Positions 4,733 to 19,278 of a stretch of DNA of 64,000 nucleotides are shown here, in pieces (the first letter of the stretch is position 1; every line of letters begins with the position of its first letter). A program made the position numbers and the translations under genes. Below the pieces are notes generated by a model that was not told the origin of the DNA, did not search any database, and saw only the letters and a program-made list of their open reading frames with translations. This DNA comes from Candidatus Wolfebacteria bacterium (GTDB lineage: Bacteria > Patescibacteriota > Minisyncoccia > UBA6257 > UBA9933), in contig JANLIR010000002.1 in the NCBI GenBank assembly GCA_024654025.1, positions 168,959 to 232,958 on the forward strand, given 5' to 3'.

Positions 4733-5152
4733 ATGAAATCGCTTTTGTTTAAAATTTCTATAGTATCAGCGATAATTTTCGCGGTTTTTACCACGAGTAT
4801 TTTTGTAGAAAAAGTTTTGGCAGTGTCCGGTGGAGGGGTTAATACAGCGGCGCCGGGCGGCGGAGTTGATTCTGTTGGCGGCGGTAACGGACAGCTTTTT
4901 AATTATTTCGGATCCGGTTCGACTCTTGACAGTGTCCTTTCCAAAATAATCGATTATTTTATCGGTGTTTCGGTTTCAGTGGCTGTGATAATAGTTATCT
5001 ATGGAGCGTGGAAAATGATGACCGCGACAGGCGATCCTAAAAAATTCCAAGAAGGCCAAAAAACAGTTTTGTACGCCGCTATCGGGTTGTTGGTAATTTT
5101 ACTCGCAAGAGGGATTATCGGCGCGTTGTATGGGATAATACAAACGTTATAA
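4733..5152 (+). CDS. Type IV secretion pilin-like small membrane protein, paralog 2
   Basis: 139 aa; same architecture (…GAWKMMTATGDPKKFQEGQKTVLYAAIGLLVILLARG…) with a Gly-rich low-complexity insert (GGGVNTAAPGGGVDSVGGGNG). Confidence 0.4.
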   Translation: MKSLLFKISIVSAIIFAVFTTSIFVEKVLAVSGGGVNTAAPGGGVDSVGGGNGQLFNYFGSGSTLDSVLSKIIDYFIGVSVSVAVIIVIYGAWKMMTATGDPKKFQEGQKTVLYAAIGLLVILLARGIIGALYGIIQTL

Positions 5153-5192
5153 TAAATATAAAGAAAAAGGTCGAGAATGAGAAATCAAAAAA

Positions 5193-5558
5193 ATGAAAAA
5201 AGTTTTACAAAAAATTATTTATTCAGGAGCGATTTTATCGCTCGTATTGCCGGTATTTTCGTTTGCCGCGATATTTACTCCGCCAGGCCAGGGGCAACCT
5301 GGAAATATTCCTATAACCGGCCTCTCTAATGTGTATGACACGCTAGATACGGTAGCTAATTATTTGTTGGGATTATTAATTGCTTTGGCGGTTGTTTTCA
5401 TTGTTTGGGGAGCGTTTCAGTTTTTAACTTCCGGTGGAGATGAAGCAAAAACAAAAGCGGCAAGAAATCATATTCTCTGGGCTCTTGTAGCTGTCGCGGT
5501 TGGGTTACTTGCTAAAGGGCTAGTTGCCGCGATAAGAGGAATCGCCGGAAACTTATAA
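5193..5558 (+). CDS. Type IV secretion pilin-like small membrane protein, paralog 3
   Basis: 121 aa; signal peptide plus helix / loop (TSGGDEAKTKAARN) / helix. Followed by a hairpin terminator at 5582-5608. Confidence 0.4.
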   Translation: MKKVLQKIIYSGAILSLVLPVFSFAAIFTPPGQGQPGNIPITGLSNVYDTLDTVANYLLGLLIALAVVFIVWGAFQFLTSGGDEAKTKAARNHILWALVAVAVGLLAKGLVAAIRGIAGNL

Positions 5559-5581: not shown

Positions 5582-5608
5582 ATATCCCGAGTGTCGGGAT
5601 ATTTTTTT
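5582..5608 (+). terminator. Rho-independent terminator after the pilin-like triplet
   Basis: ATATCCCGA-GTG-TCGGGATAT hairpin followed by a T7 run. Confidence 0.6.
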
Positions 5609-5668
5609 ACTATTTTCATCCGTATTAATCCGTATGTATTTATAATTCGCACAAATCTGTTAGAAACA

Positions 5669-5716
5669 AAAAAATCCCCGCCTGCGGCCGAAGCCACAAG
5701 CGGGGTGTAAAAAACT
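5669..5716 (-). terminator. Rho-independent terminator (minus strand) after the GC-rich membrane-protein gene
   Basis: On the minus strand: CCCCGC…GCGGGG stem followed by ATTTTTTTG. Confidence 0.5.
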
Positions 5717-5728
5717 AGTTAGTTCACG

Positions 5729-6679
5729 TCAATAAATCTTCAGGAGACCCGGTTGTCCCATGGCCACTTTTATTGGGCCGAGCGGGTTTCCGTTAGTTTT
5801 CCATTTCCAAAAGCCAACCGGTCCCGCTTTCCGTGTTTCGCCGGAGCCCTCGCCAATTATGATCTGGTAAGAGTTTTGGGCGTCAATCGTTATGATTGTC
5901 CCAATGGGCGGGGTCCATGAAGTCACCGCAACGCTCCCGGCCGGAATAAAAACACCATTTCGTCCTTCTTCCGGCGTGACCACGATTTCTTTGAGAACCG
6001 GCGCACTGGGCGCAACCCCCGCTTCCGCGTTAGATGGTTTCATGGTGAGAGTCGTCACGATGCCATTGTCGATTCCCTTTGCTGAGTTCCTTGCGAGCTC
6101 GGCTGTGCGGGGAAGAAACAATGAAATGACGATTGTTATGAAAATCATCGATGCGACAAACGTTATTGCCCTTCCGTTGAAGATGGAAGTGCCTCCGAAA
6201 AGCCGAGTTCCGATAAAGATGATAAAGGCCAAGAGCAGCAGCAACGGGATCAGCTCGGGTCGTTTATCTATCGGAATGATGATAAGCATCAGGGCGAATG
6301 ATAACTCGGCGAATAATACGTGCAGCGTCAGTCGAACATACCGCTCTCCAAACCCCACTGCTGTTCTTCGCCAGATCGCGTCGATTATTAACGCAATCGG
6401 CGCGGCCAGTAAAGAAAGCAAGATCGTGAAGAACGCCCAAACAAGTCCCGCAACCGAAATCCACATCGAGAATCCGAAAATTCCCAGAAGCAGGATTGGT
6501 ATGGGCAGAAGCATCATTACGATTGCGAGCCGCGAAAGCCCGACCCGATATACTTCAAAATCGGTTCTGTTATCGCCCCCAACAAGGGCAATGACCTCGG
6601 CGGCGTCCGCCGCGCCGGTGATGATTGTGTCGAGAATGAGCCGCAGCGTTAAGAGTATTTCACGAAGTGTTTCACGCAT
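5729..6679 (-). CDS. Hypothetical multi-pass membrane protein with a C-terminal extracytoplasmic domain, in a GC-rich islet
   Basis: The tracked ORF is 5729..6784. The likely true start is the ATG at 6679 (MRETLREIL…), preceded by AAAGGAGG and overlapping the upstream stop (ATGCGTGA). About 5 TM helices, then a ~130-aa Gly/Pro/Thr-rich soluble tail. Local GC is roughly 55% against a ~38% background. Confidence 0.5.
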   Translation of the reverse strand: MRETLREILLTLRLILDTIITGAADAAEVIALVGGDNRTDFEVYRVGLSRLAIVMMLLPIPILLLGIFGFSMWISVAGLVWAFFTILLSLLAAPIALIIDAIWRRTAVGFGERYVRLTLHVLFAELSFALMLIIIPIDKRPELIPLLLLLAFIIFIGTRLFGGTSIFNGRAITFVASMIFITIVISLFLPRTAELARNSAKGIDNGIVTTLTMKPSNAEAGVAPSAPVLKEIVVTPEEGRNGVFIPAGSVAVTSWTPPIGTIITIDAQNSYQIIIGEGSGETRKAGPVGFWKWKTNGNPLGPIKVAMGQPGLLKIY

Positions 6680-7373
6680 GAGGAGCCTCCTTTCGATATT
6701 TGGCAGTCTTCCGGCCGCGTGCTGTGCGGCGGTTATTGAGCCATTCAGCCCAACGGTCGTTGAGGGGTTGAAGTTCTGAACCAATTACTCCAAATACTTC
6801 GTTGAGACGGATCCCAAACATTCTTAGCCACTGCATGACGATGTCGTGGTTGAGAAACTCGATTGCGCTGTCGAATTCTTGCGGAGGAAGTTCGCCGAGC
6901 CAGACGAAGAAGTTGATGGTATCTTCATCGGTCGTTTCCTTCCCTTCCTCGGATTCTTTAAGTATTAAAACCTTTCCGAGACAATCCACAAGAAGATTCT
7001 CTTCGCCAGGCCGGTAATTTCCTTCGTCAGAATAAAGCCGGGGCCGACAAAACTGCCGATCTTCCTGCCTCTTTCTGATGGTTTTTGCCGCGACTTTCTT
7101 CTTTTCATCTTCGGAAGATTCCATCTTCTGTAAAAAAACGAGAAGCTTGGCGCGGTAATGGTCACTCATCTTCGCCTGCACTTTTTTAGCCGTTTCTACG
7201 GCTGCCTTGCTCCCGACTTCGCGAATGACCTCGGCGGCAGCGGTTCTTGACCCCATCTTCATAAGCCCCCAGGCTTTTCTGAGGAGTTCAAAAACAGCAA
7301 TACCCCCTGCCGTTATCCCGAGTTCCTTTCCGACTTCGCCAGCGCTGAAATCAGCTTTCTTTTCCTCTGCCAT
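6672..7373 (-). CDS. Hypothetical protein (GC-rich islet), translationally coupled to the downstream membrane-protein gene
   Basis: 233 aa, Lys/Glu-rich, no recognisable motif. Shares the high GC of its neighbour. The antisense ORF 5892..6779 is a GC-driven shadow. Confidence 0.45.
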   Translation of the reverse strand: MAEEKKADFSAGEVGKELGITAGGIAVFELLRKAWGLMKMGSRTAAAEVIREVGSKAAVETAKKVQAKMSDHYRAKLLVFLQKMESSEDEKKKVAAKTIRKRQEDRQFCRPRLYSDEGNYRPGEENLLVDCLGKVLILKESEEGKETTDEDTINFFVWLGELPPQEFDSAIEFLNHDIVMQWLRMFGIRLNEVFGVIGSELQPLNDRWAEWLNNRRTARGRKTAKYRKEAPHA

Positions 7374-7564
7374 GGTCGGCGTCCTCCTTTCAGGATTTAG
7401 ATAGTTTCACTACGGGGTTGACGTAAACTATTTATAAGAGCAAATTTTGGAATAGTTGCCTACCCCAAAATACTTTGATATAATACAATAAAATTATTTA
7501 AAAGTCAACTAATGATTTTGTTAAAAAATAACAGCTAATAATGTATAATTTATTTGTTTAATAT

Positions 7565-7649
7565 GTCCTCGTGGCGGAAATGGAATACGCGCAGCGCTTA
7601 GGACGCTGTCCCGCAAGGGTTGTGGGTTCGACTCCCACCGAGGACACCA
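7565..7649 (+). tRNA. tRNA-Leu (anticodon TAG), class II with long variable arm; CCA encoded
   Basis: Acceptor GTCCTCG/CGAGGAC; anticodon arm CAGCG-CTTAGGA-CGCTG; variable stem CCC-GCAA-GGG; T-arm GTGGG-TTCGACT-CCCAC; ACCA at the 3' end. Preceded by a TATAAT -10 element at about 7543. Confidence 0.8.
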
Positions 7650-7650
7650 A

Positions 7651-7686
7651 ACTATAAATCCCTTCGAGACCGAAGGGATTTATAGT
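7651..7686 (+). terminator. Perfect 16-bp hairpin immediately 3' of tRNA-Leu
   Basis: ACTATAAATCCCTTCG-AGAC-CGAAGGGATTTATAGT. No clean U-tract, so it may be a processing or structure element. Confidence 0.45.
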
Positions 7687-7809
7687 TTATATATCACAAG
7701 GGAGGAGAAGGGTATTTAAAAAAGCAAACTGCTTTGCTTTTTTAAAACCCCGGCTCTGGAGGAGTAATTTTCCATGTTTATTTATGAACGAAAAATTACG
7801 GGGGAAGAG

Positions 7810-7827
7810 GACTCCCACCGAGGACAC
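7810..7827 (+). repeat. 18-bp direct repeat of the tRNA-Leu 3' end (candidate att-site remnant)
   Basis: GACTCCCACCGAGGACAC at 7810-7827 is identical to the last 18 nt of the tRNA body (7630-7647). It lies 4 bp from the stop of the tyrosine recombinase gene. Confidence 0.6.
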
Positions 7828-7831
7828 AAAA

Positions 7832-8827
7832 TTATCCCCTTCTTCTTCCGTGAAATGTTTTGTGTATTTCTTTGAGTTCTTTATTTGTTAAATGCGTGTA
7901 AATTTGGGTTGTGGAAATATTGCTATGGCCTAAAAGTTCTTGCACAGACCTTAAATCCGCTCCTCCGATTAATAAATCAGTGGCAAAGCTATGCCGGAGC
8001 AAATGCGGGTGGATTTTTTGCGGTATCCCCGCTTTTCGGCCGTAAAAATCTATCAAGCGCTGAATTGCGCGAGGAATAATTCTCCCGATAACTTTCGGAT
8101 TTGCTTGCCCTGAGCTCATCGAGTCTGAGACTCTCAGAGTCGAATGACTTGTCGAACGGGTTGCTTTAGTTAAGCTTACAAACAGCGCTTCTTCGGCATC
8201 GGTTCGTTTTCCTAAATAATTTTTTATAGCTTTCTTGGCGGATTCGGATAAAAACACCACTCTTATTTTCCCGCCCTTGCCCCGCACGGAAATTTCTCCC
8301 CTATTCAAATCAAAATACCGGCTCAAAGAACATAATTCTGAAACGCGAAGCCCGGTTGAAAACAAAACTTCCAAAATCGCTTTGTCGCGAAGTCCTTTTA
8401 AATCGTTTGTTTTGGGCGCTGCCATAAGCCGTTCCAAATCCGAGTATTCCATTATATTGATTTGCCGGTTTGGAATTCTAGGAAGCTCGATTTTTTCCGA
8501 AGCTAAAACCCTGTAGTCGTTTTTCGCCAAAAATTTCAAAAAGTTTCTAAGCGCTATTATGTAGTAGCTTTGGGTTGTGCGTTTAAAGTTTTCTCCATCT
8601 CTGGGATTATGAAGCCGCGCCAGATAGATCCGAAAATCTCTTACGTTGTCAGCGGTGATATCGCCCTCGGATTTTATTTTGGCGAAATCAAAAAACTTCG
8701 TTAAATAGTGCTCATAATTTTCCCGCGTGTCTTTAGTCCTGCCTTTTTCAATCTCAAGATAATCAAGATAGTTTTTGAGGAGTTTGTTTATGTCAGCCAT
8801 AGCTTCGCAACCTGTAACTTGTAACAA
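7832..8827 (-). CDS. Tyrosine site-specific recombinase (XerC/XerD / phage-integrase family)
   Basis: 331 aa. N-terminal SAM-like core-binding domain; catalytic motifs LFSTGLRVSEL, HPHLLRHSFATDLL, LGHSNISTTQIYTH (R…HxxR…Y). About 25-aa insertion relative to canonical XerD before the HxxR box. Confidence 0.85.
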   Translation of the reverse strand: MLQVTGCEAMADINKLLKNYLDYLEIEKGRTKDTRENYEHYLTKFFDFAKIKSEGDITADNVRDFRIYLARLHNPRDGENFKRTTQSYYIIALRNFLKFLAKNDYRVLASEKIELPRIPNRQINIMEYSDLERLMAAPKTNDLKGLRDKAILEVLFSTGLRVSELCSLSRYFDLNRGEISVRGKGGKIRVVFLSESAKKAIKNYLGKRTDAEEALFVSLTKATRSTSHSTLRVSDSMSSGQANPKVIGRIIPRAIQRLIDFYGRKAGIPQKIHPHLLRHSFATDLLIGGADLRSVQELLGHSNISTTQIYTHLTNKELKEIHKTFHGRRRG

Positions 8828-9006
8828 TTAACTTATAACAAATCAGTTTTAAATATTTCTCCCTCTAGTTACCAGTCACTGGTTACCAATCACTAGTTAG
8901 ATAATACCATTGTTCTGTCGTAAAATAAATGGTTTTATAACATGTCTTATTAAAGCAGAGCATTTTTATTGACAAATAAACATTAAAATGATACCCTTTA
9001 AAAATC

Positions 9007-9273
9007 ATGTTAACCAAAACTCAAAAGAAAAGTTTGATTAAAGAACATGCTATTAACGAAAAAGACAGCGGTTCTATGGAAGTCCAAGTTGCTTTTTTAA
9101 CTAAGCAAATAAGCGAGCTTACCGGCCATCTTAAAAAAAATCCCAAGGACCATTCTTCCAGAAGGGGGTTGCTTCAAATGGTTGGCAAGAGAAAAAGATT
9201 TCTTGATTATCTTTCAACCAAAAGAAAATCTTCTTACGACAAGATTGTTAAAAAACTCGGACTTAAAAAATAA
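9007..9273 (+). CDS. rpsO: 30S ribosomal protein S15
   Basis: 88 aa; EVQVAFLTKQISELTGHLKKNPKDHSSRRGLLQMVGKRKRFLDYL is the canonical S15 core. Confidence 0.9.
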   Translation: MLTKTQKKSLIKEHAINEKDSGSMEVQVAFLTKQISELTGHLKKNPKDHSSRRGLLQMVGKRKRFLDYLSTKRKSSYDKIVKKLGLKK

Positions 9274-9281
9274 AATTCGGC

Positions 9282-9797
9282 ATGAGAAATAAAAATCAAA
9301 GAGTAGGCATTTTTATAGATGTCCAAAATCTCTATCATTCCGCTAAGCATCTTTACGGCGGCAAGGTAAATTACAGGGAGCTTATAAAAACTCTTGTTGA
9401 CGGCCGTCAGCTAATCAGGGCTTTGGGCTATGTAGTTAAAAGCGAAACCTCCGATAAATCAGCGCCTACCGGCGAGGCGTCGTTTTTTGAGGCTTTGGAA
9501 AAAGCAGGCGTGGAACTAAGAATGAAAGATATCCAGGTTTTTCCGGGAGGCGTTAAAAAAGCCAACTGGGACGTGGGTATGGCTGTTGACGCTCTGAGAA
9601 TGTCCAGTTTTTTGGATGTCATAATTTTAGTTACTGGCGACGGCGATTTTGAACCGCTTGTTGAATATATCCAGTGGGGCATGGGCAGGATTGTTGAAGT
9701 TGCCGCTTTCAGTTATAATACTTCATCGAAATTAAAAGAAGCGGCCGATCTTTTTATTAATTTAGAAAAAAATCCCAGAATAATGATAAAAAAATAA
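9282..9797 (+). CDS. NYN-domain (LabA/PIN-like) predicted RNase, inserted between rpsO and pnp
   Basis: 171 aa; VGIFIDVQNLYHS…ILVTGDGDFEPLVEYIQ matches the NYN/LabA-like fold signature (Asp-rich catalytic positions). 1-nt spacing to pnp. Confidence 0.65.
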   Translation: MRNKNQRVGIFIDVQNLYHSAKHLYGGKVNYRELIKTLVDGRQLIRALGYVVKSETSDKSAPTGEASFFEALEKAGVELRMKDIQVFPGGVKKANWDVGMAVDALRMSSFLDVIILVTGDGDFEPLVEYIQWGMGRIVEVAAFSYNTSSKLKEAADLFINLEKNPRIMIKK

Positions 9798-9798
9798 A

Positions 9799-11910
9799 AT
9801 GCTTGAATCCAAAGAATTTTCAATTGATTTTCAAGGGAAACCCTTGAGCTTAAAAGTTTCCAAAATTGCCGAGCAAGCCAACTCGGCTGTTTTAGGCCAG
9901 TACGGCGATACCGTGGTTCTAGTAACCGCCACGATGGGCGAAAAAGACCGCGATACGGATTATTTTCCTTTGGTAGTTGATTACGAAGAAAAATTTTATG
10001 CCGCCGGAAAAATTATCGGCAGCCGGTTTATTCGGCGCGAAGGCCGGCCTTCGGAAGAAGCTATTCTTTCCGGAAGAATGATTGACCGGGCGCTTCGGCC
10101 CTTTTTTAATTCACGGATGAGAAGAGATGTTCAAATTGTAATCACTATCCTTTCTTACGACGAAGAAAACGATCCGGATTTTATTTCGCTTCTCTCCGCT
10201 TCAACCGCCTTGGCAATTTCCGATATTCCGTGGAATGGCCCTGTTGCCGGAGTAAGATTGGCAAAAATGAAAGGCGGAAATTTAATGATTAATCCGACCA
10301 AGACGGAAATTAGCGGCAGTGAATTTTTATTCGAATCTTTTGTCGCCGGAAATGAAAGTAAAATAAATATGATAGAACTGGCGGCAAACGAAGTTTCCGA
10401 AAAAGAAGTTATTAGTTCATTTGAAACAGCCCAGGAAGAAATAAAAAAATTGATAAAATTCCAAAAAGAAATTATTCCCAAAATCAGCAAACCAAAAGCC
10501 GAAGTGCTTCTTGTTGAGCCGGATCCGAATTTAAAGCATAAAGTTCAGGAATTTTTAAAAAATAAATTAGAAAACGCAGTTTATGTTTCCGATAAAGCCC
10601 AGCAGCGCCATATTTTGCGAAAGTTAAAAGAAGATTTGAAAGAGCATTTGGTTTCTGAGGGGCTAATTCCGGAAGGAATTGATGCTATTGTAGAGGAAGA
10701 AATCGACGCGCTTATCCATAAAAATATTTTGGAAAAAGATATGAGGCCGGACTCTCGAAAACTCGATGAGGTCAGAGCGCTTTTCGGCCAAGTCGGTTTA
10801 TTTAAACGGCTTCACGGTTCCGCCTTGTTTTTTAGGGGTAGTACTCAATCGTTGGCAGTTACAACTTTAGCCGCTCCCGGACAGGAGCAAATGATAGAAA
10901 CAATGGAAGTTTCAGGGAAACGCAGATTTATGCTCCATTACAATTTTCCGCCTTATTCGGTTGGAGAAATAGGCAGACTGGGCGGACCGGGACGCCGAGA
11001 AGTCGGCCACGGCGCTTTGGCGGAAAAAGCCATAAGGTCAATAATCCCCTCAAAAGAGGAATTCCCTTATACTATCCGTGTTGTTTCAGAGATTTTGTCT
11101 TCAAACGGGTCATCTTCTATGGCAACTGTCTGCTCGTCGGTATTATCGCTAATGGATGCAGGTGTTCCTATTAAAAAGCCGGTGGCAGGCATTGCTATGG
11201 GAATTATTATGGGACAAGCGACAAGCGACAAGCGACAAGATTACAAAGTGCTGACCGATATTCAAGGCCCGGAAGATCACTACGGCGATATGGATTGTAA
11301 AGTTGCAGGCACAACCGACGGAATTACCGCCATACAAATGGACGTGAAAATTGACGGCGTTACCACCGAAATTTTAAATGACGTGTTAGTTCAAGCCAAA
11401 AAAGCCCGCCTTGAGATTTTGGAAGTTATGAAATCCGTTATTGATAAGCCTAGGGAAAAACTTTCAGAGTTCGCGCCAATTATTTTGACAATCAACATTA
11501 GTCCGGAAAGAATCGGCGAAGTTATCGGCCCGGGCGGAAAAATGATTAATATGATAATTAAAGACACCGGCGTTACGACAATAGATATCGAACAAACCGG
11601 AAAAGTTTTTGTTTCCGCCACTACTCCCGAACAAGCCCAAGCGGCGATTGGGTTCATCCAATCCTTAACAAAAGAATTCGAGGTCGGCGAAATTATTGAA
11701 GGCAAGATTATCAAACTTTTGGAATTTGGAGCCATTGTCGATTTGGGAGGCGGCAATGACGGAATGATTCACATTTCAGAAGTAAAAAGCGGATTTGTAA
11801 AAGATATTAATGAAGTTCTTAAATTGGGCGATGTTGTGAGGGCAAAAATTATAAAAGTTGAAAACGGAAAAATCGGACTTTCGATAAAAGCCTTGGCGGA
11901 ACAAAAATAG
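9799..11910 (+). CDS. pnp: Polynucleotide phosphorylase
   Basis: 703 aa. Two RNase PH domains, a KH domain (GEVIGPGGKMINMI) and a C-terminal S1 domain (GEIIEGKIIKLLEFGAIVDL). Confidence 0.9.
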   Translation: MLESKEFSIDFQGKPLSLKVSKIAEQANSAVLGQYGDTVVLVTATMGEKDRDTDYFPLVVDYEEKFYAAGKIIGSRFIRREGRPSEEAILSGRMIDRALRPFFNSRMRRDVQIVITILSYDEENDPDFISLLSASTALAISDIPWNGPVAGVRLAKMKGGNLMINPTKTEISGSEFLFESFVAGNESKINMIELAANEVSEKEVISSFETAQEEIKKLIKFQKEIIPKISKPKAEVLLVEPDPNLKHKVQEFLKNKLENAVYVSDKAQQRHILRKLKEDLKEHLVSEGLIPEGIDAIVEEEIDALIHKNILEKDMRPDSRKLDEVRALFGQVGLFKRLHGSALFFRGSTQSLAVTTLAAPGQEQMIETMEVSGKRRFMLHYNFPPYSVGEIGRLGGPGRREVGHGALAEKAIRSIIPSKEEFPYTIRVVSEILSSNGSSSMATVCSSVLSLMDAGVPIKKPVAGIAMGIIMGQATSDKRQDYKVLTDIQGPEDHYGDMDCKVAGTTDGITAIQMDVKIDGVTTEILNDVLVQAKKARLEILEVMKSVIDKPREKLSEFAPIILTINISPERIGEVIGPGGKMINMIIKDTGVTTIDIEQTGKVFVSATTPEQAQAAIGFIQSLTKEFEVGEIIEGKIIKLLEFGAIVDLGGGNDGMIHISEVKSGFVKDINEVLKLGDVVRAKIIKVENGKIGLSIKALAEQK

Positions 11911-16767: not shown

Positions 16768-17199
16768 ATGCAAACAAAAAAAATTACAGCAGAATATATT
16801 AGGGGCTTTATTGAGGGCGTGGGAACTTTTACTTTCACAACCTCGTCACGGGGTTTCAATAAAAAGGTTAAAATACCAACTTTTCAATTAAGAATGAATA
16901 TTCGAGATAAACGGTTAATTGAATTGATTAAAGGACATCTCGGACTTAAAAATAGGGTTTATATGTATCATTATCCGGGAACTGATGGCGCAAAACGAGG
17001 GCCACAAGCGATGTTAATAGTCCGAGAAATAGGTAATCTGAAAAATATAATCATCCCTTTCTTTTACGATAAGCTGGTTGGGTATAAAGCAGCCCAATTT
17101 AATAAGTGGCTTGAAAGAATAGGTAAAGACTCGGAAGTGCCAGAGGGATTTAAGATTCTATACCGTCTTCATAAATCCGGTTGGTTTTCAAAGAAATAG
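16768..17199 (+). CDS. LAGLIDADG-family homing endonuclease (single-motif, free-standing)
   Basis: 143 aa; YIRGFIEGVGTF is a LAGLIDADG-type motif (cf. LAGFIDGEGSF). The size fits homodimeric I-CreI-like enzymes. Confidence 0.6.
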   Translation: MQTKKITAEYIRGFIEGVGTFTFTTSSRGFNKKVKIPTFQLRMNIRDKRLIELIKGHLGLKNRVYMYHYPGTDGAKRGPQAMLIVREIGNLKNIIIPFFYDKLVGYKAAQFNKWLERIGKDSEVPEGFKILYRLHKSGWFSKK

Positions 17200-17483
17200 C
17201 ATTAAAATGGTTTAGTAGGTAAAAATACTAATTCGGCAATGGTCATTGCCGAATTAAAATAGGGGTTTTGCCGAATTAAAATGTTGGGAATGTTTTACAA
17301 CCAACACTTTGAATCAAATTTTAAGGGTCTAAAGTGTCAAAAATGTTTATCAAGTTTTGATAAACAATCTTTTACGACAGATTAGCTTAAAATTGGGCTA
17401 AAAAGTGTTTATCAAGTTTTGGCAAACATTTTCGGAAAGTTTAGTAAATAGTTCGGCAATCCGTTATTTGATGGATTGCCGAA

Positions 17484-18137
17484 CTAATAGGACGCGAAAA
17501 TACCCTTTGCCCACCCCCGGATTTTTAAAGATAGCCCAACATTACAGATGTAGATTTCAAAAGTTCCATAAGGAAGGCCCTCTTTTTTGGATTTTGTGGC
17601 TCTTTTTACTGAGAGTTTGAAAAACTGCTTTAAAGGGATGCCGGAAATTTCCGACCAGTATTTTTCTGTTCCCCGATGATCAAGGTGGGGATAGATATAA
17701 ATATGCCCCCGGAATTTCTGTTCCGGAACCTCACAAACATCCCTAAAAAAGGCCATCATTAACCTAACTATATTCGGGTCGCTGTTTGAGAACCGGACAA
17801 GGCCTTTTTGGGTTTTCCCACACCCTGCCCAATACAAAACCGAGCCAATTAGCCAAAGCTCACTTCTAGTTATTTTCTTTACCTGCTTTTGCGCTTGGTC
17901 GATAAGGTTTTCTCGTGTAGCTGTTTCCCGAGCCAGTCTGGTTGCGCGTCTTTTTTCCACTACCGAAAGCTTTACGGCGCGCTTTGATAGCGTTTTCTCC
18001 TGGTCTTTAGTTAGCGCGATGTTGCGGACCCATAAGCTCGCGCTACTTTTTGAAACGTTTAAGTTTTTCGCGATCTCGTTCAGAGAGTAACCATAAGCTC
18101 GGAGTTCTCGCGCTTTTTGTTTTTCAGCCTGCTTCAT
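17484..18137 (-). CDS. HTH plus LAGLIDADG-like domain protein (possible degenerate homing endonuclease / maturase-like)
   Basis: 217 aa. N-terminal sigma70-region-4-like HTH (LRAYGYSLNEIAKNLNVSKSSASLWVRNI). C-terminal segment SELWLIGSVLYWAGCGKTQ…VRLMMAFFRDV resembles a LAGLIDADG helix lacking the acidic residues. Confidence 0.35.
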   Translation of the reverse strand: MKQAEKQKARELRAYGYSLNEIAKNLNVSKSSASLWVRNIALTKDQEKTLSKRAVKLSVVEKRRATRLARETATRENLIDQAQKQVKKITRSELWLIGSVLYWAGCGKTQKGLVRFSNSDPNIVRLMMAFFRDVCEVPEQKFRGHIYIYPHLDHRGTEKYWSEISGIPLKQFFKLSVKRATKSKKEGLPYGTFEIYICNVGLSLKIRGWAKGIFASY

Positions 18138-19184: not shown

Positions 19185-19206
19185 CTCCTTATTATAGCAA
19201 AAAAAG

Positions 19207-19278
19207 TGCGAGTGGCAGGGATCGAACCTGCGACGGCCGTCTTATAAGGGCGGTGCTCTACCACTGAGCTACACTCGC
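19207..19278 (-). tRNA. tRNA with anticodon TAT (reads AUA; Ile-type)
   Basis: GCGAGTG-TA-GCTC-AGTGGTA-GAGC-A-CCGCC-CTTATAA-GACGG-CCGTC-GCAGG-TTCGATC-CCTGC-CACTCGC-A. One C·A mismatch in the anticodon stem. Anticodon UAU, not the usual bacterial CAU-lysidine. Confidence 0.55.

Follow-up and report, generated by a model that had tools for sequence, protein, structure and literature searches.

When the last nucleotides of a tRNA gene recur a short way downstream, beside the gene of a tyrosine recombinase, the locus raises the question of whether foreign DNA has entered the chromosome at that tRNA and whether the adjacent recombinase put it there. Such an arrangement occurs at a tRNA-Leu gene on contig JANLIR010000002.1 of a Candidatus Wolfebacteria bacterium, in the 64-kb stretch of DNA analysed here (the window, to which all coordinates refer). 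We compared the window with 85 fetched loci, designated by L-numbers; those of the close relatives were retrieved via their recombinase proteins. The repeat proves to be the scar of a 180-bp insertion whose unoccupied site is preserved in a sister genome, and the recombinase lies outside the inserted DNA. The features at the centre of the question, with att denoting an attachment site, are these:

7565..7649, + strand: tRNA-Leu(UAG), intact, called by ARAGORN as tRNA-Leu(tag), with CCA encoded in the window allele
7630..7647, + strand: repeat copy 1, attL-like, which completes the intact tRNA
7648..7809, + strand: insert of 162 nt
7810..7827, + strand: repeat copy 2, attR-like, the displaced original tRNA 3' end on its native flank
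7832..8800, - strand: Xer-family tyrosine recombinase of 322 aa (Pfam, NCBIfam), a conserved chromosomal gene outside the insert

The Rfam tRNA model agrees with the call of a tRNA-Leu (52.9 bits), and a tRNA identical to that of the window is present in three relatives (L068, L070 and L071). The 18-mer GACTCCCACCGAGGACAC has two matches in the 64 kb, both on the + strand and identical at 18/18 positions; they are still the only two when 3 mismatches are allowed, and 100 shuffles gave 0 matches. The copies are spaced 180 nt start to start with 162 nt between them, close to the distance of 160 bp given in a first-pass annotation of this DNA, and copy 2 ends 4 nt short of the recombinase stop, which reads TTA on the + strand (7832-7834). 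The 18-bp repeat that the annotation had placed at the tRNA 3' end and 4 bp from that stop is therefore real, and a search for further copies of the 18-mer in the window found none beyond this pair. Similarity between the copies extends to 26 nt with 2 mismatches (8 further bases), and in one allele of a related species, represented by L001, the exact repeat is 21 nt long (GACTCCCACCGAGGACACAAA). Projected on the tRNA, the repeated sequence takes in half of the T-loop (its 3' side), the 3' strands of the T-stem and of the acceptor stem, the discriminator and the first C of CCA. Genomic islands in tRNA genes are recognised by a regenerated target and a displaced 3' fragment, and one class of them has its attachment site in the T-stem region (PMC4383910); here an intact target tRNA is likewise followed, downstream and in the same orientation, by a displaced 3' fragment.

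The site can be seen unoccupied in L070, a sister genome with a recombinase 88% identical to that of the window, where a tRNA identical to the window's ends 3 nt from the stop codon of the same recombinase gene. L070 reads ...GGTTCGACTCCCACCGAGGACAC-AAA-TTATCCCCTTCTTCTTCCGTG, its tRNA 3' end and flank being GACTCCCACCGAGGACAC-AAA-TTATCCCCTTCTTCTTCCGTG, and window positions 7810-7855 match this tRNA end and flank base for base except for AAAA in place of AAA. The unoccupied site of the related genome is thus equal to the displaced fragment and its flank, and it follows that the window carries an insertion of 180 bp in total (162 nt plus one repeat copy), that copy 2 is original and that copy 1 arrived with the insert. 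The junctions take the following forms:

empty site: tRNA-AAA-TTATCCCC
circular form, if the insert were excised: …GGGGGAAGAG-GACTCCCACCGAGGACAC-CAAACTATAAAT…, also written GAAGAG-core-CAAACTAT

The first-pass annotation had read the repeat as an insertion scar at the tRNA 3' end, and the empty site bears this out. Its alternative, a chromosomal Xer beside a coincidental repeat, survives in its first half, as described below, and not in its second. The neighbourhood of the two genes is older than the insertion. In 19 GTDB species genomes tRNA-Leu(UAG) is convergent with the recombinase gene, and in the more distant L015, L022, L030 and L032 its end lies 5-11 nt from the recombinase stop; ancestrally the two genes converged, with 3-11 nt between the tRNA 3' end and the recombinase stop codon.

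By BLAST against all fetched DNA, the insert is missing from L070 and is seen only in the window, in L073 (the same species as the window, with one base different) and in the loci of the L001 species; within the window, BLAST found no further copy. It occupies all nine places examined in the L001 species, with both repeat copies in seven and only the distal copy in L080 and L082, whose contigs end before the tRNA and so leave a single copy visible. A search for decayed repeats between tRNA and recombinase, as exact matches of at least 8-9 nt and as 18-mers with up to 4 mismatches, likewise found them only in the window and the L001 species. Divergence was measured over 3.3 kb (recombinase, rpsO, NYN and pnp), each locus against the window:

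L070: site empty, 90.6% nucleotide identity, 79.7% third-position identity
L001: site occupied, 87.6% nucleotide identity, 71.9% third-position identity
L068: no repeat copy, 87.4% nucleotide identity, 72.7% third-position identity
L071: no repeat copy, 84.8% nucleotide identity, 67.1% third-position identity

The occupied genomes, window and L001, are therefore not each other's closest relatives. Between the window and the L001 group the insert is 95-98% identical (95% overall against L001), with 3 changes in about 120-140 nt to the right of its first hairpin, and the tRNA itself has 3 changes in 85 nt against L001. The highly similar block begins upstream of the tRNA, at about 7536, and is 96% identical over 7536-7831; homology then ends exactly at copy 2 plus AAAA, past which the window has the recombinase stop and L001 has 116 unrelated bp, like a sequence near the L072 recombinase. 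Compared in this way, the near-identity of the insert at such a distance points to either recent spread or strong constraint. A single old insertion followed by precise loss in L070, which slippage between the repeats would make easy, fits the distribution if constraint has been very strong. We favour a recent spread of the unit into two lineages, because even the tRNA has changed to that extent and because most of the insert has no known function.

Three features were recognised in the inserted DNA:

7649..7688, + strand: hairpin 1, a perfect 18-bp stem with a 4-nt loop, directly 3' of the tRNA
7705..7756, no strand assigned: hairpin 2, in which a GCAAA(CTGC)TTTGC stem-loop stands between an A-run and a T-run, with no difference between the window and L001
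7774..7875, + strand: open reading frame (ORF) of 33 codons, with GGAGGAG at 7758-7764, 9 nt upstream of its ATG, crossing copy 2 into the recombinase gene in antisense

Hairpin 1 is probably a terminator of the tRNA supplied by the insert, and its stem is preserved by compensatory changes across three alleles, those of L076 and L074 among them. Hairpin 2, as modelled, resembles a bidirectional terminator and stands where the tRNA and recombinase genes converge. The insert as a whole folds more stably than shuffled sequences (z = -7.3 on the + strand and -9.7 on the - strand), and a weak terminator-like site for the recombinase is predicted across copy 2 and the end of the insert. The 33-codon ORF has only its first 19 codons in common with L001, where the frame stops after 25 codons, and no other copy of it occurs in any fetched DNA; for its divergence past codon 19 it was rejected as a gene, and it is probably a truncated gene start or noncoding. 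An ORF of 46 codons on the - strand was rejected too, since its stop codon is lost in L001. The insert is without a credible gene: between the repeats there are no cargo, phage or conjugation genes, just the two hairpins and the 33-codon ORF, and no tyrosine integrase gene lies between the tRNA and the displaced fragment. The cargo is therefore as small as the first-pass annotation had supposed. A transposon or miniature inverted-repeat transposable element was considered and rejected, the ends of the insert (AAACTATAAAT... and ...GGGGGAAGAG) being unrelated, with no terminal inverted repeats, and the duplication measuring 18-21 bp. An Rfam scan of the insert gave sub-threshold matches only. 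One of them, to RsaE/RoxS on the - strand at 7652-7753 (34.7 bits against a gathering score of 79, E = 0.0016), falls where a C-rich CCCTTCTCCTCCC lies between the two hairpins on that strand; it is most likely a chance match and is the sole hint of a small RNA in the insert.

The neighbouring recombinase, whose start we placed at MADINK as in its homologues, contains Phage_integrase and SAM-like domains. It misses the equivalog cut-offs of both XerC (234.1 bits against 335) and XerD (228.8 against 329.6) and passes that of the archaeal XerA model (228.8 bits, cut-off 220), and its best solved relatives are XerA (4a8e) and XerD (1a0p). The catalytic residues R152, K175, H266, R269, H292 and Y301 are invariant among its homologues. 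Orthologues at about 60-89% identity are found in many Patescibacteria. Homologues at 68-89% abound in the Paceibacteria, Candidatus Wolfebacteria included, and the one match at 100% is a Wolfebacteria metagenome-assembled genome. A pattern scan, which detects close relatives only and so leaves room for paralogues, found one relative per genome in about 50 Patescibacteria species genomes. On its other side the gene has housekeeping neighbours:

9007..11910, + strand: rpsO, a gene with a NYN domain, and pnp

This divergent cluster stands directly upstream of the recombinase in 22 of the 50 species genomes, down to recombinase identities of 44-48%. Judging from its gene order and relatives, the recombinase is a resident chromosomal gene of the Xer type and not cargo. 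We conclude that it is not the integrase of the insert because it lies outside the repeats, is vertically conserved, is flanked by rpsO-NYN-pnp and adjoins tRNA-Leu(UAG) even in genomes that have no insert; the link between repeat and recombinase implied by the first-pass annotation fails on the same grounds. That annotation would have given up its reading if the recombinase grouped firmly with the single chromosomal Xer proteins of Candidate Phyla Radiation (CPR) bacteria and if the spacer and repeat were conserved in relatives free of mobile cargo. The recombinase does group with CPR chromosomal Xer-like genes, and the spacer and repeat do occur in a cargo-free relative, but a closer relative lacks both. 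For annotation, the gene is better taken as a resident Xer-family gene of Wolfebacteria and Paceibacteria than as a marker of a mobile element, and the repeat as an insertion scar that is mapped precisely and whose empty site is known.

On these observations we favour, with moderate confidence, the view that the repeats are the attL-like and attR-like ends of an integrase-less, att-flanked mini-remnant at the 3' end of tRNA-Leu(UAG), similar to a cis-mobilizable element (CIME). Before the insertion the original tRNA 3' end adjoined the stop codon of the convergent Xer-family recombinase gene, a housekeeping-type resident whose place beside the tRNA is older than the insert. Copy 1 came with the insert and completes the tRNA, and copy 2 is the old tRNA end. 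The insertion itself would have been produced by site-specific recombination of the tyrosine-recombinase type at the tRNA 3' end; we infer this type of event because the block of identity starts in the T-loop and stops just beyond the tRNA end, as in the T-stem-region class. The insert would provide the tRNA with a terminator hairpin and the convergent genes with a bidirectional terminator-like one, and what is left at the site may be an element, or the remnant of one, that has no integrase, retains both att ends and could be mobilized in cis. That it is nearly identical in a non-sister species and missing from the sister suggests a recent spread, in which it would have been carried by a larger element at the same site or passed on by homologous exchange of the tRNA region.

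The unit resembles Islander islands and prophages in its regenerated tRNA, its 3' fragment in the same orientation, its block of identity from T-loop to tRNA end and the empty site in a relative, and differs from them in an interval of 162 nt without integrase or cargo, whereas in Islander-type definitions the interval must contain an integrase gene (PMC4383910). CIMEs are defined as retaining attL and attR while having lost the genes for integration and transfer (PMC5704250). The window unit likewise has both att-like repeats intact and no recombination or transfer genes inside, and its near-identity in a non-sister species fits carriage by another element; unlike described CIMEs it is far smaller, and no parent integrative and conjugative or integrative and mobilizable element, helper or accretion was seen. 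No CIMEs in CPR bacteria are documented in the literature searched. The scar is of a well-known kind and in that respect ordinary; what is unusual is its size, its apparent recent spread among CPR bacteria and its position against a resident recombinase gene. It offers a clean, small case of integrase-less, att-flanked DNA that has apparently moved between CPR species. To our knowledge, mobile elements and gene flow are poorly described in the CPR.

Several observations weigh against the CIME-like interpretation. No integrase could be linked to the insert, and phmmer searches of all ORFs of the window and 73 loci returned no second tyrosine recombinase, only the orthologue. Neither an attP-bearing parent nor a circular junction nor any other context of the insert was found in IMG/VR, INPHARED, PLSDB, JGI metagenomes or the 85 loci. 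Specifically, the exact pattern of the right junction occurs in JGI metagenomes only in the same species (L073); a 24-mer internal to the insert has no match in IMG/VR; neither the INPHARED phages nor the PLSDB plasmids contain a blastn match to the insert; and no relatives of the recombinase were found in IMG/VR. The 18-mer core is present in IMG/VR only at the identical 3' end of a phage tRNA-Lys, not an att site. This tRNA-Lys(CTT), whose last 31 nt (GGGTTGTGGGTTCGACTCCCACCGAGGACAC) equal the end of the window tRNA-Leu, lies at 5316-5391 of L085 (UViG_3300028800_000066), a phage contig on which 14 tRNA genes form an array.

The surroundings of the insert add to these difficulties. Three derived states in the spacer of the tRNA promoter are common to the window and L001 (ATTTG..AAT-AT, against GTGTG..AATAAT in L070, L068 and L072); they fit homologous transfer of a block of promoter, tRNA and insert better than site-specific movement of 180 bp. 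L070 could have lost the insert simply by slippage from one repeat to the other; the conservation of the insert would then need selection, for example on its terminators. Finally, the DNA that other relatives carry between tRNA and recombinase is without tRNA-end repeats and much of it is ordinary gene content. A gene for a 130-aa CxxC protein stands there in L068, L072, L083 and L084, and a PaaX/Cas2-like gene in L004, L006, L010, L014 and L031 (in L071 and L083 the latter lies beyond the tRNA); since no tRNA-end repeat is found in the intervals holding these genes, we read them as ordinary differences in gene content. The first-pass annotation had called the region a hotspot, which is reasonable insofar as close relatives do carry different contents at this junction, and is borne out in part.

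The explanation that survives best beside the CIME-like one concerns maintenance and is compatible with any origin: the insert may have been kept as a selected module, a terminator or insulator between genes otherwise 3 nt apart, or a small RNA. We regard this as a tentative possibility. The two strong hairpins, the compensatory changes in the stem of the first, the excess folding on both strands and the terminator-like structure predicted for the recombinase where the insert end meets copy 2 all speak for it, as do the mere 3 changes in about 120 nt between species with a silent-site difference of about 28% and, for an RNA, the RsaE-like match on the - strand. Yet the sister genome and many others live without the insert, conservation extends evenly across parts without predicted structure, the Rfam match is far below threshold, and four alleles give no power to detect covariation outside hairpin 1.

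The shared promoter-spacer states make homologous exchange of the block of promoter, tRNA and insert a serious alternative to site-specific movement, and one form of this idea needs no integrase at all. The tRNA-Leu of a related donor, together with its 3' flank, would have replaced the resident allele, with a homologous join on the left and an illegitimate or short-homology join on the right, in the T-loop; 18-21 nt of the old tRNA end would be left as a fossil. Both the replacement and this origin of the fossil we consider unlikely. The promoter-spacer states place the start of the similar block upstream of the tRNA (about 7536), where such an account needs it, and the same kind of event has left its trace in two relatives. 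In L072 (1317-2192) and L084 (1158-1899) the whole tRNA-Leu(UAG) has been swapped for a different allele behind a conserved promoter, and behind the replacement stands a fossil 3' fragment, 36-47 nt long, that stems from a third allele (…CGCAAGGCTTGAGGGTTCAAGTCCCTCCCTGCCCAC); L072 has, immediately 3' of the tRNA end, a further insertion of about 205 bp that is GC-rich and contains several hairpins. The right end of the window insert also looks like a truncated gene start (GGAGGAG, 9 nt, ATG; an intact gene would begin MFIYERKITGEE), and its left end opens with a tRNA terminator, like the native tRNA flanks in L068 and L083. On the other hand, a junction in the T-loop with a block of identity running exactly to the tRNA end plus AAA is the classic pattern of an integrase (PMC4383910), the JGI scan and the fetched DNA contain no donor genome with this flank in its native context, and the same junction stands in two lineages with different right flanks, so that a single illegitimate join would have had to spread with only about 22 bp of homology on the right.

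Integrative mobile elements exploiting Xer (IMEX), among them CTXphi, TLCphi and Legionella LME-1, suggest a further candidate for the catalyst, namely the resident Xer itself. By analogy with xerS/difSL, the recombinase gene and the 3' end of tRNA-Leu would form a fixed module at which integrase-less DNA docks by mimicry, as IMEX do. This seems to us distinctly unlikely. The adjacent Xer is the obvious suspect, because the recombination site adjoins the gene in known single-recombinase Xer systems (PMC5357621) and because integrase-less elements can use a host Xer, mobile-element integration having revealed a new dif/Xer system in Legionella (PMC9765430). In lineages whose recombinase proteins span 60-88% identity, the gene stops 3-11 nt short of the tRNA end, no other tyrosine recombinase is present in the insert or its neighbours, and close relatives hold differing contents at the junction. 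Against this, clean repeats occur in one lineage pair only; the sequence of the tRNA end varies between lineages that retain the adjacency, so no conserved recombination site is evident; a dyad with a 6-11-bp centre was not recognised at the locus by eye, no formal search being made; the window has no GC-skew turn at the locus (7.6 kb), while dif sites lie at the terminus; and many relatives have another gene downstream of the recombinase.

In its broader form, with Xer and the end of tRNA-Leu(UAG) as a resident docking module of a CPR lineage that captures DNA mimicking the tRNA end in the manner of IMEX or integrons, the proposal would be improbable indeed. If the resident Xer did act on the tRNA end, the set of sites exploited through host Xer would be wider and CPR Xer would have a recombination site. 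The likeness to IMEX lies in an integrase-less insert, a duplicated sequence resembling a recombination site and a host recombinase of the Xer family at hand; the site, unlike theirs, is a tRNA 3' end and not a dif at the terminus, without an identified dif-like dyad or a skew turn, and the part of Xer would be hypothetical. With the XerS/difSL, XerH/difH and archaeal XerA modules the locus shares a protein closest to XerA and XerD, and the XerS and XerH systems have their site beside the gene (PMC5357621); unlike those single-recombinase modules, it has no recognised dif, and its protein falls below the XerC and XerD equivalog cut-offs. An integron platform, too, has a resident Xer-related recombinase beside a site that accumulates short DNA segments, and the recombinase of the window has a loop insertion in roughly the region of the extra domain of IntI. 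The integron reading was nevertheless rejected: TIGR02249 scores 109 bits against a cut-off of 265, the loop is of low complexity and missing in close orthologues, and there are no attC-like cassettes.

An integrase gene with its 3' end facing a tRNA-derived att core is the classic arrangement at the end of a prophage, and together with the match of the recombinase to PHROG 1 (160.8 bits), which comprises phage integrase families, it speaks for the view of the first-pass annotation that the recombinase is the integrase of the inserted element, its cargo lost. This view is scarcely tenable and already contradicted by the empty site, for the gene lies outside the interval bounded by the repeats, stands at the same place in L070 and in many repeat-free genomes, is conserved at 60-89% in a housekeeping-like manner with its rpsO-NYN-pnp flank in 22 species, and has no third repeat copy within 64 kb.

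Another point raised by the first-pass annotation was an insertion of about 25 aa before the HxxR box of the recombinase. An insertion is present and is smaller, 19 aa net by alignment:

8102..8161, - strand: DNA of the lineage-specific 19-aa S/T-rich loop, residues T214-A233, before HxxR

The segment is 8 aa long in the closest relative (P0004) and 17 aa in P0002, and it is missing in P0003, P0006, P0007 and more distant homologues; orthologues at 86-89% identity lack the loop. PDB alignments of the recombinase break at residues 212-240, and XerA has a few residues in this loop. From such comparisons the loop is best described as a variable low-complexity expansion, not a family-defining or integron-type domain. 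Its DNA consists of nested short palindromes (GAGTC-TGA-GACTC-TCA-GAGTC), which together with the variable length suggests an expansion driven by hairpins or slippage within the coding region.

A search for a conserved dif-like element beside the recombinase yielded instead a conserved TTTTGCGACAG element in the promoter region, which we read as a promoter or operator and not as a recombination site. The motif TTTTRCGACAG is followed after 6-8 nt by a TATAAT-like hexamer. It was matched within 2 mismatches in 41 of 68 related loci (L002-L047 range); in about half of these it precedes the recombinase start by 23-37 nt, and in most others it lies further upstream. In the window it has two sites only, 8916-8925 (- strand) and 17370-17379 (+ strand), and an inverted copy lies nearby in L014, L027 and L033. 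Placed where no -35 hexamer is expected, it could serve as an operator or belong to a promoter of unusual design. The leader between promoter and start codon (8828-8900 in the window) varies in length, from 8 nt in L070 to about 100 nt in the window, L001 and L068. In the window it holds a tandem GTTACCAGTCACTG / GTTACCAATCACTAG, and similar motifs of the CTAGTGGCTA type recur near the recombinase stop in L001 and L072. In L073, a strain of the window's own species, recombinase and rpsO are about 450 bp further apart (1253-1882).

The GC-rich islet that the first-pass annotation had noted beside the locus is also real. It extends over about 5600-7400, with a GC content of 0.47-0.53 against about 0.40, on the 5' side of the tRNA and outside the repeats, and contains:

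5729-7373, - strand: two overlapping orphan ORFs of 233 aa and 351 aa, the latter membrane-like

These ORFs have no match in Pfam, NCBIfam or PHROG, and the 130-aa CxxC protein has none in Pfam or PHROGs. The islet is conserved in four relatives (L001, L070, L071 and L072; 57-82% aa identity), and an unrelated ORF of 514 aa takes its place in L068. Two adjacent small genes at 4733-5558 (+ strand) match T4SS_pilin (PF18895, E = 1e-9 and 4e-11) and are kept beside the islet in relatives.

Downstream of the recombinase stop, L001 (4916-5035) and L072 (near 1320-1440) have in common a segment of about 116 bp with a perfect palindrome, CGCGTTGTATAGTATACTATACAACGCG, that is not in the window or L070 and may be a small repeat element or terminator. 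The gene downstream of the recombinase is other than tRNA-Leu in many relatives; in L040, L046, L047, L048 and others, a Val-CAC, Val-GAC or Met tRNA often lies within about 70-120 nt of the recombinase stop. Elsewhere in the window, two ORFs at 16768-18137 flank the intergenic region near a tRNA-Val, and the first of them starts like what we take, from its sequence, to be a LAGLIDADG homing endonuclease. A tRNA-Ile with the anticodon TAT lies at 19206-19278, and the same tRNA is present in L019, L028, L033 and L064.

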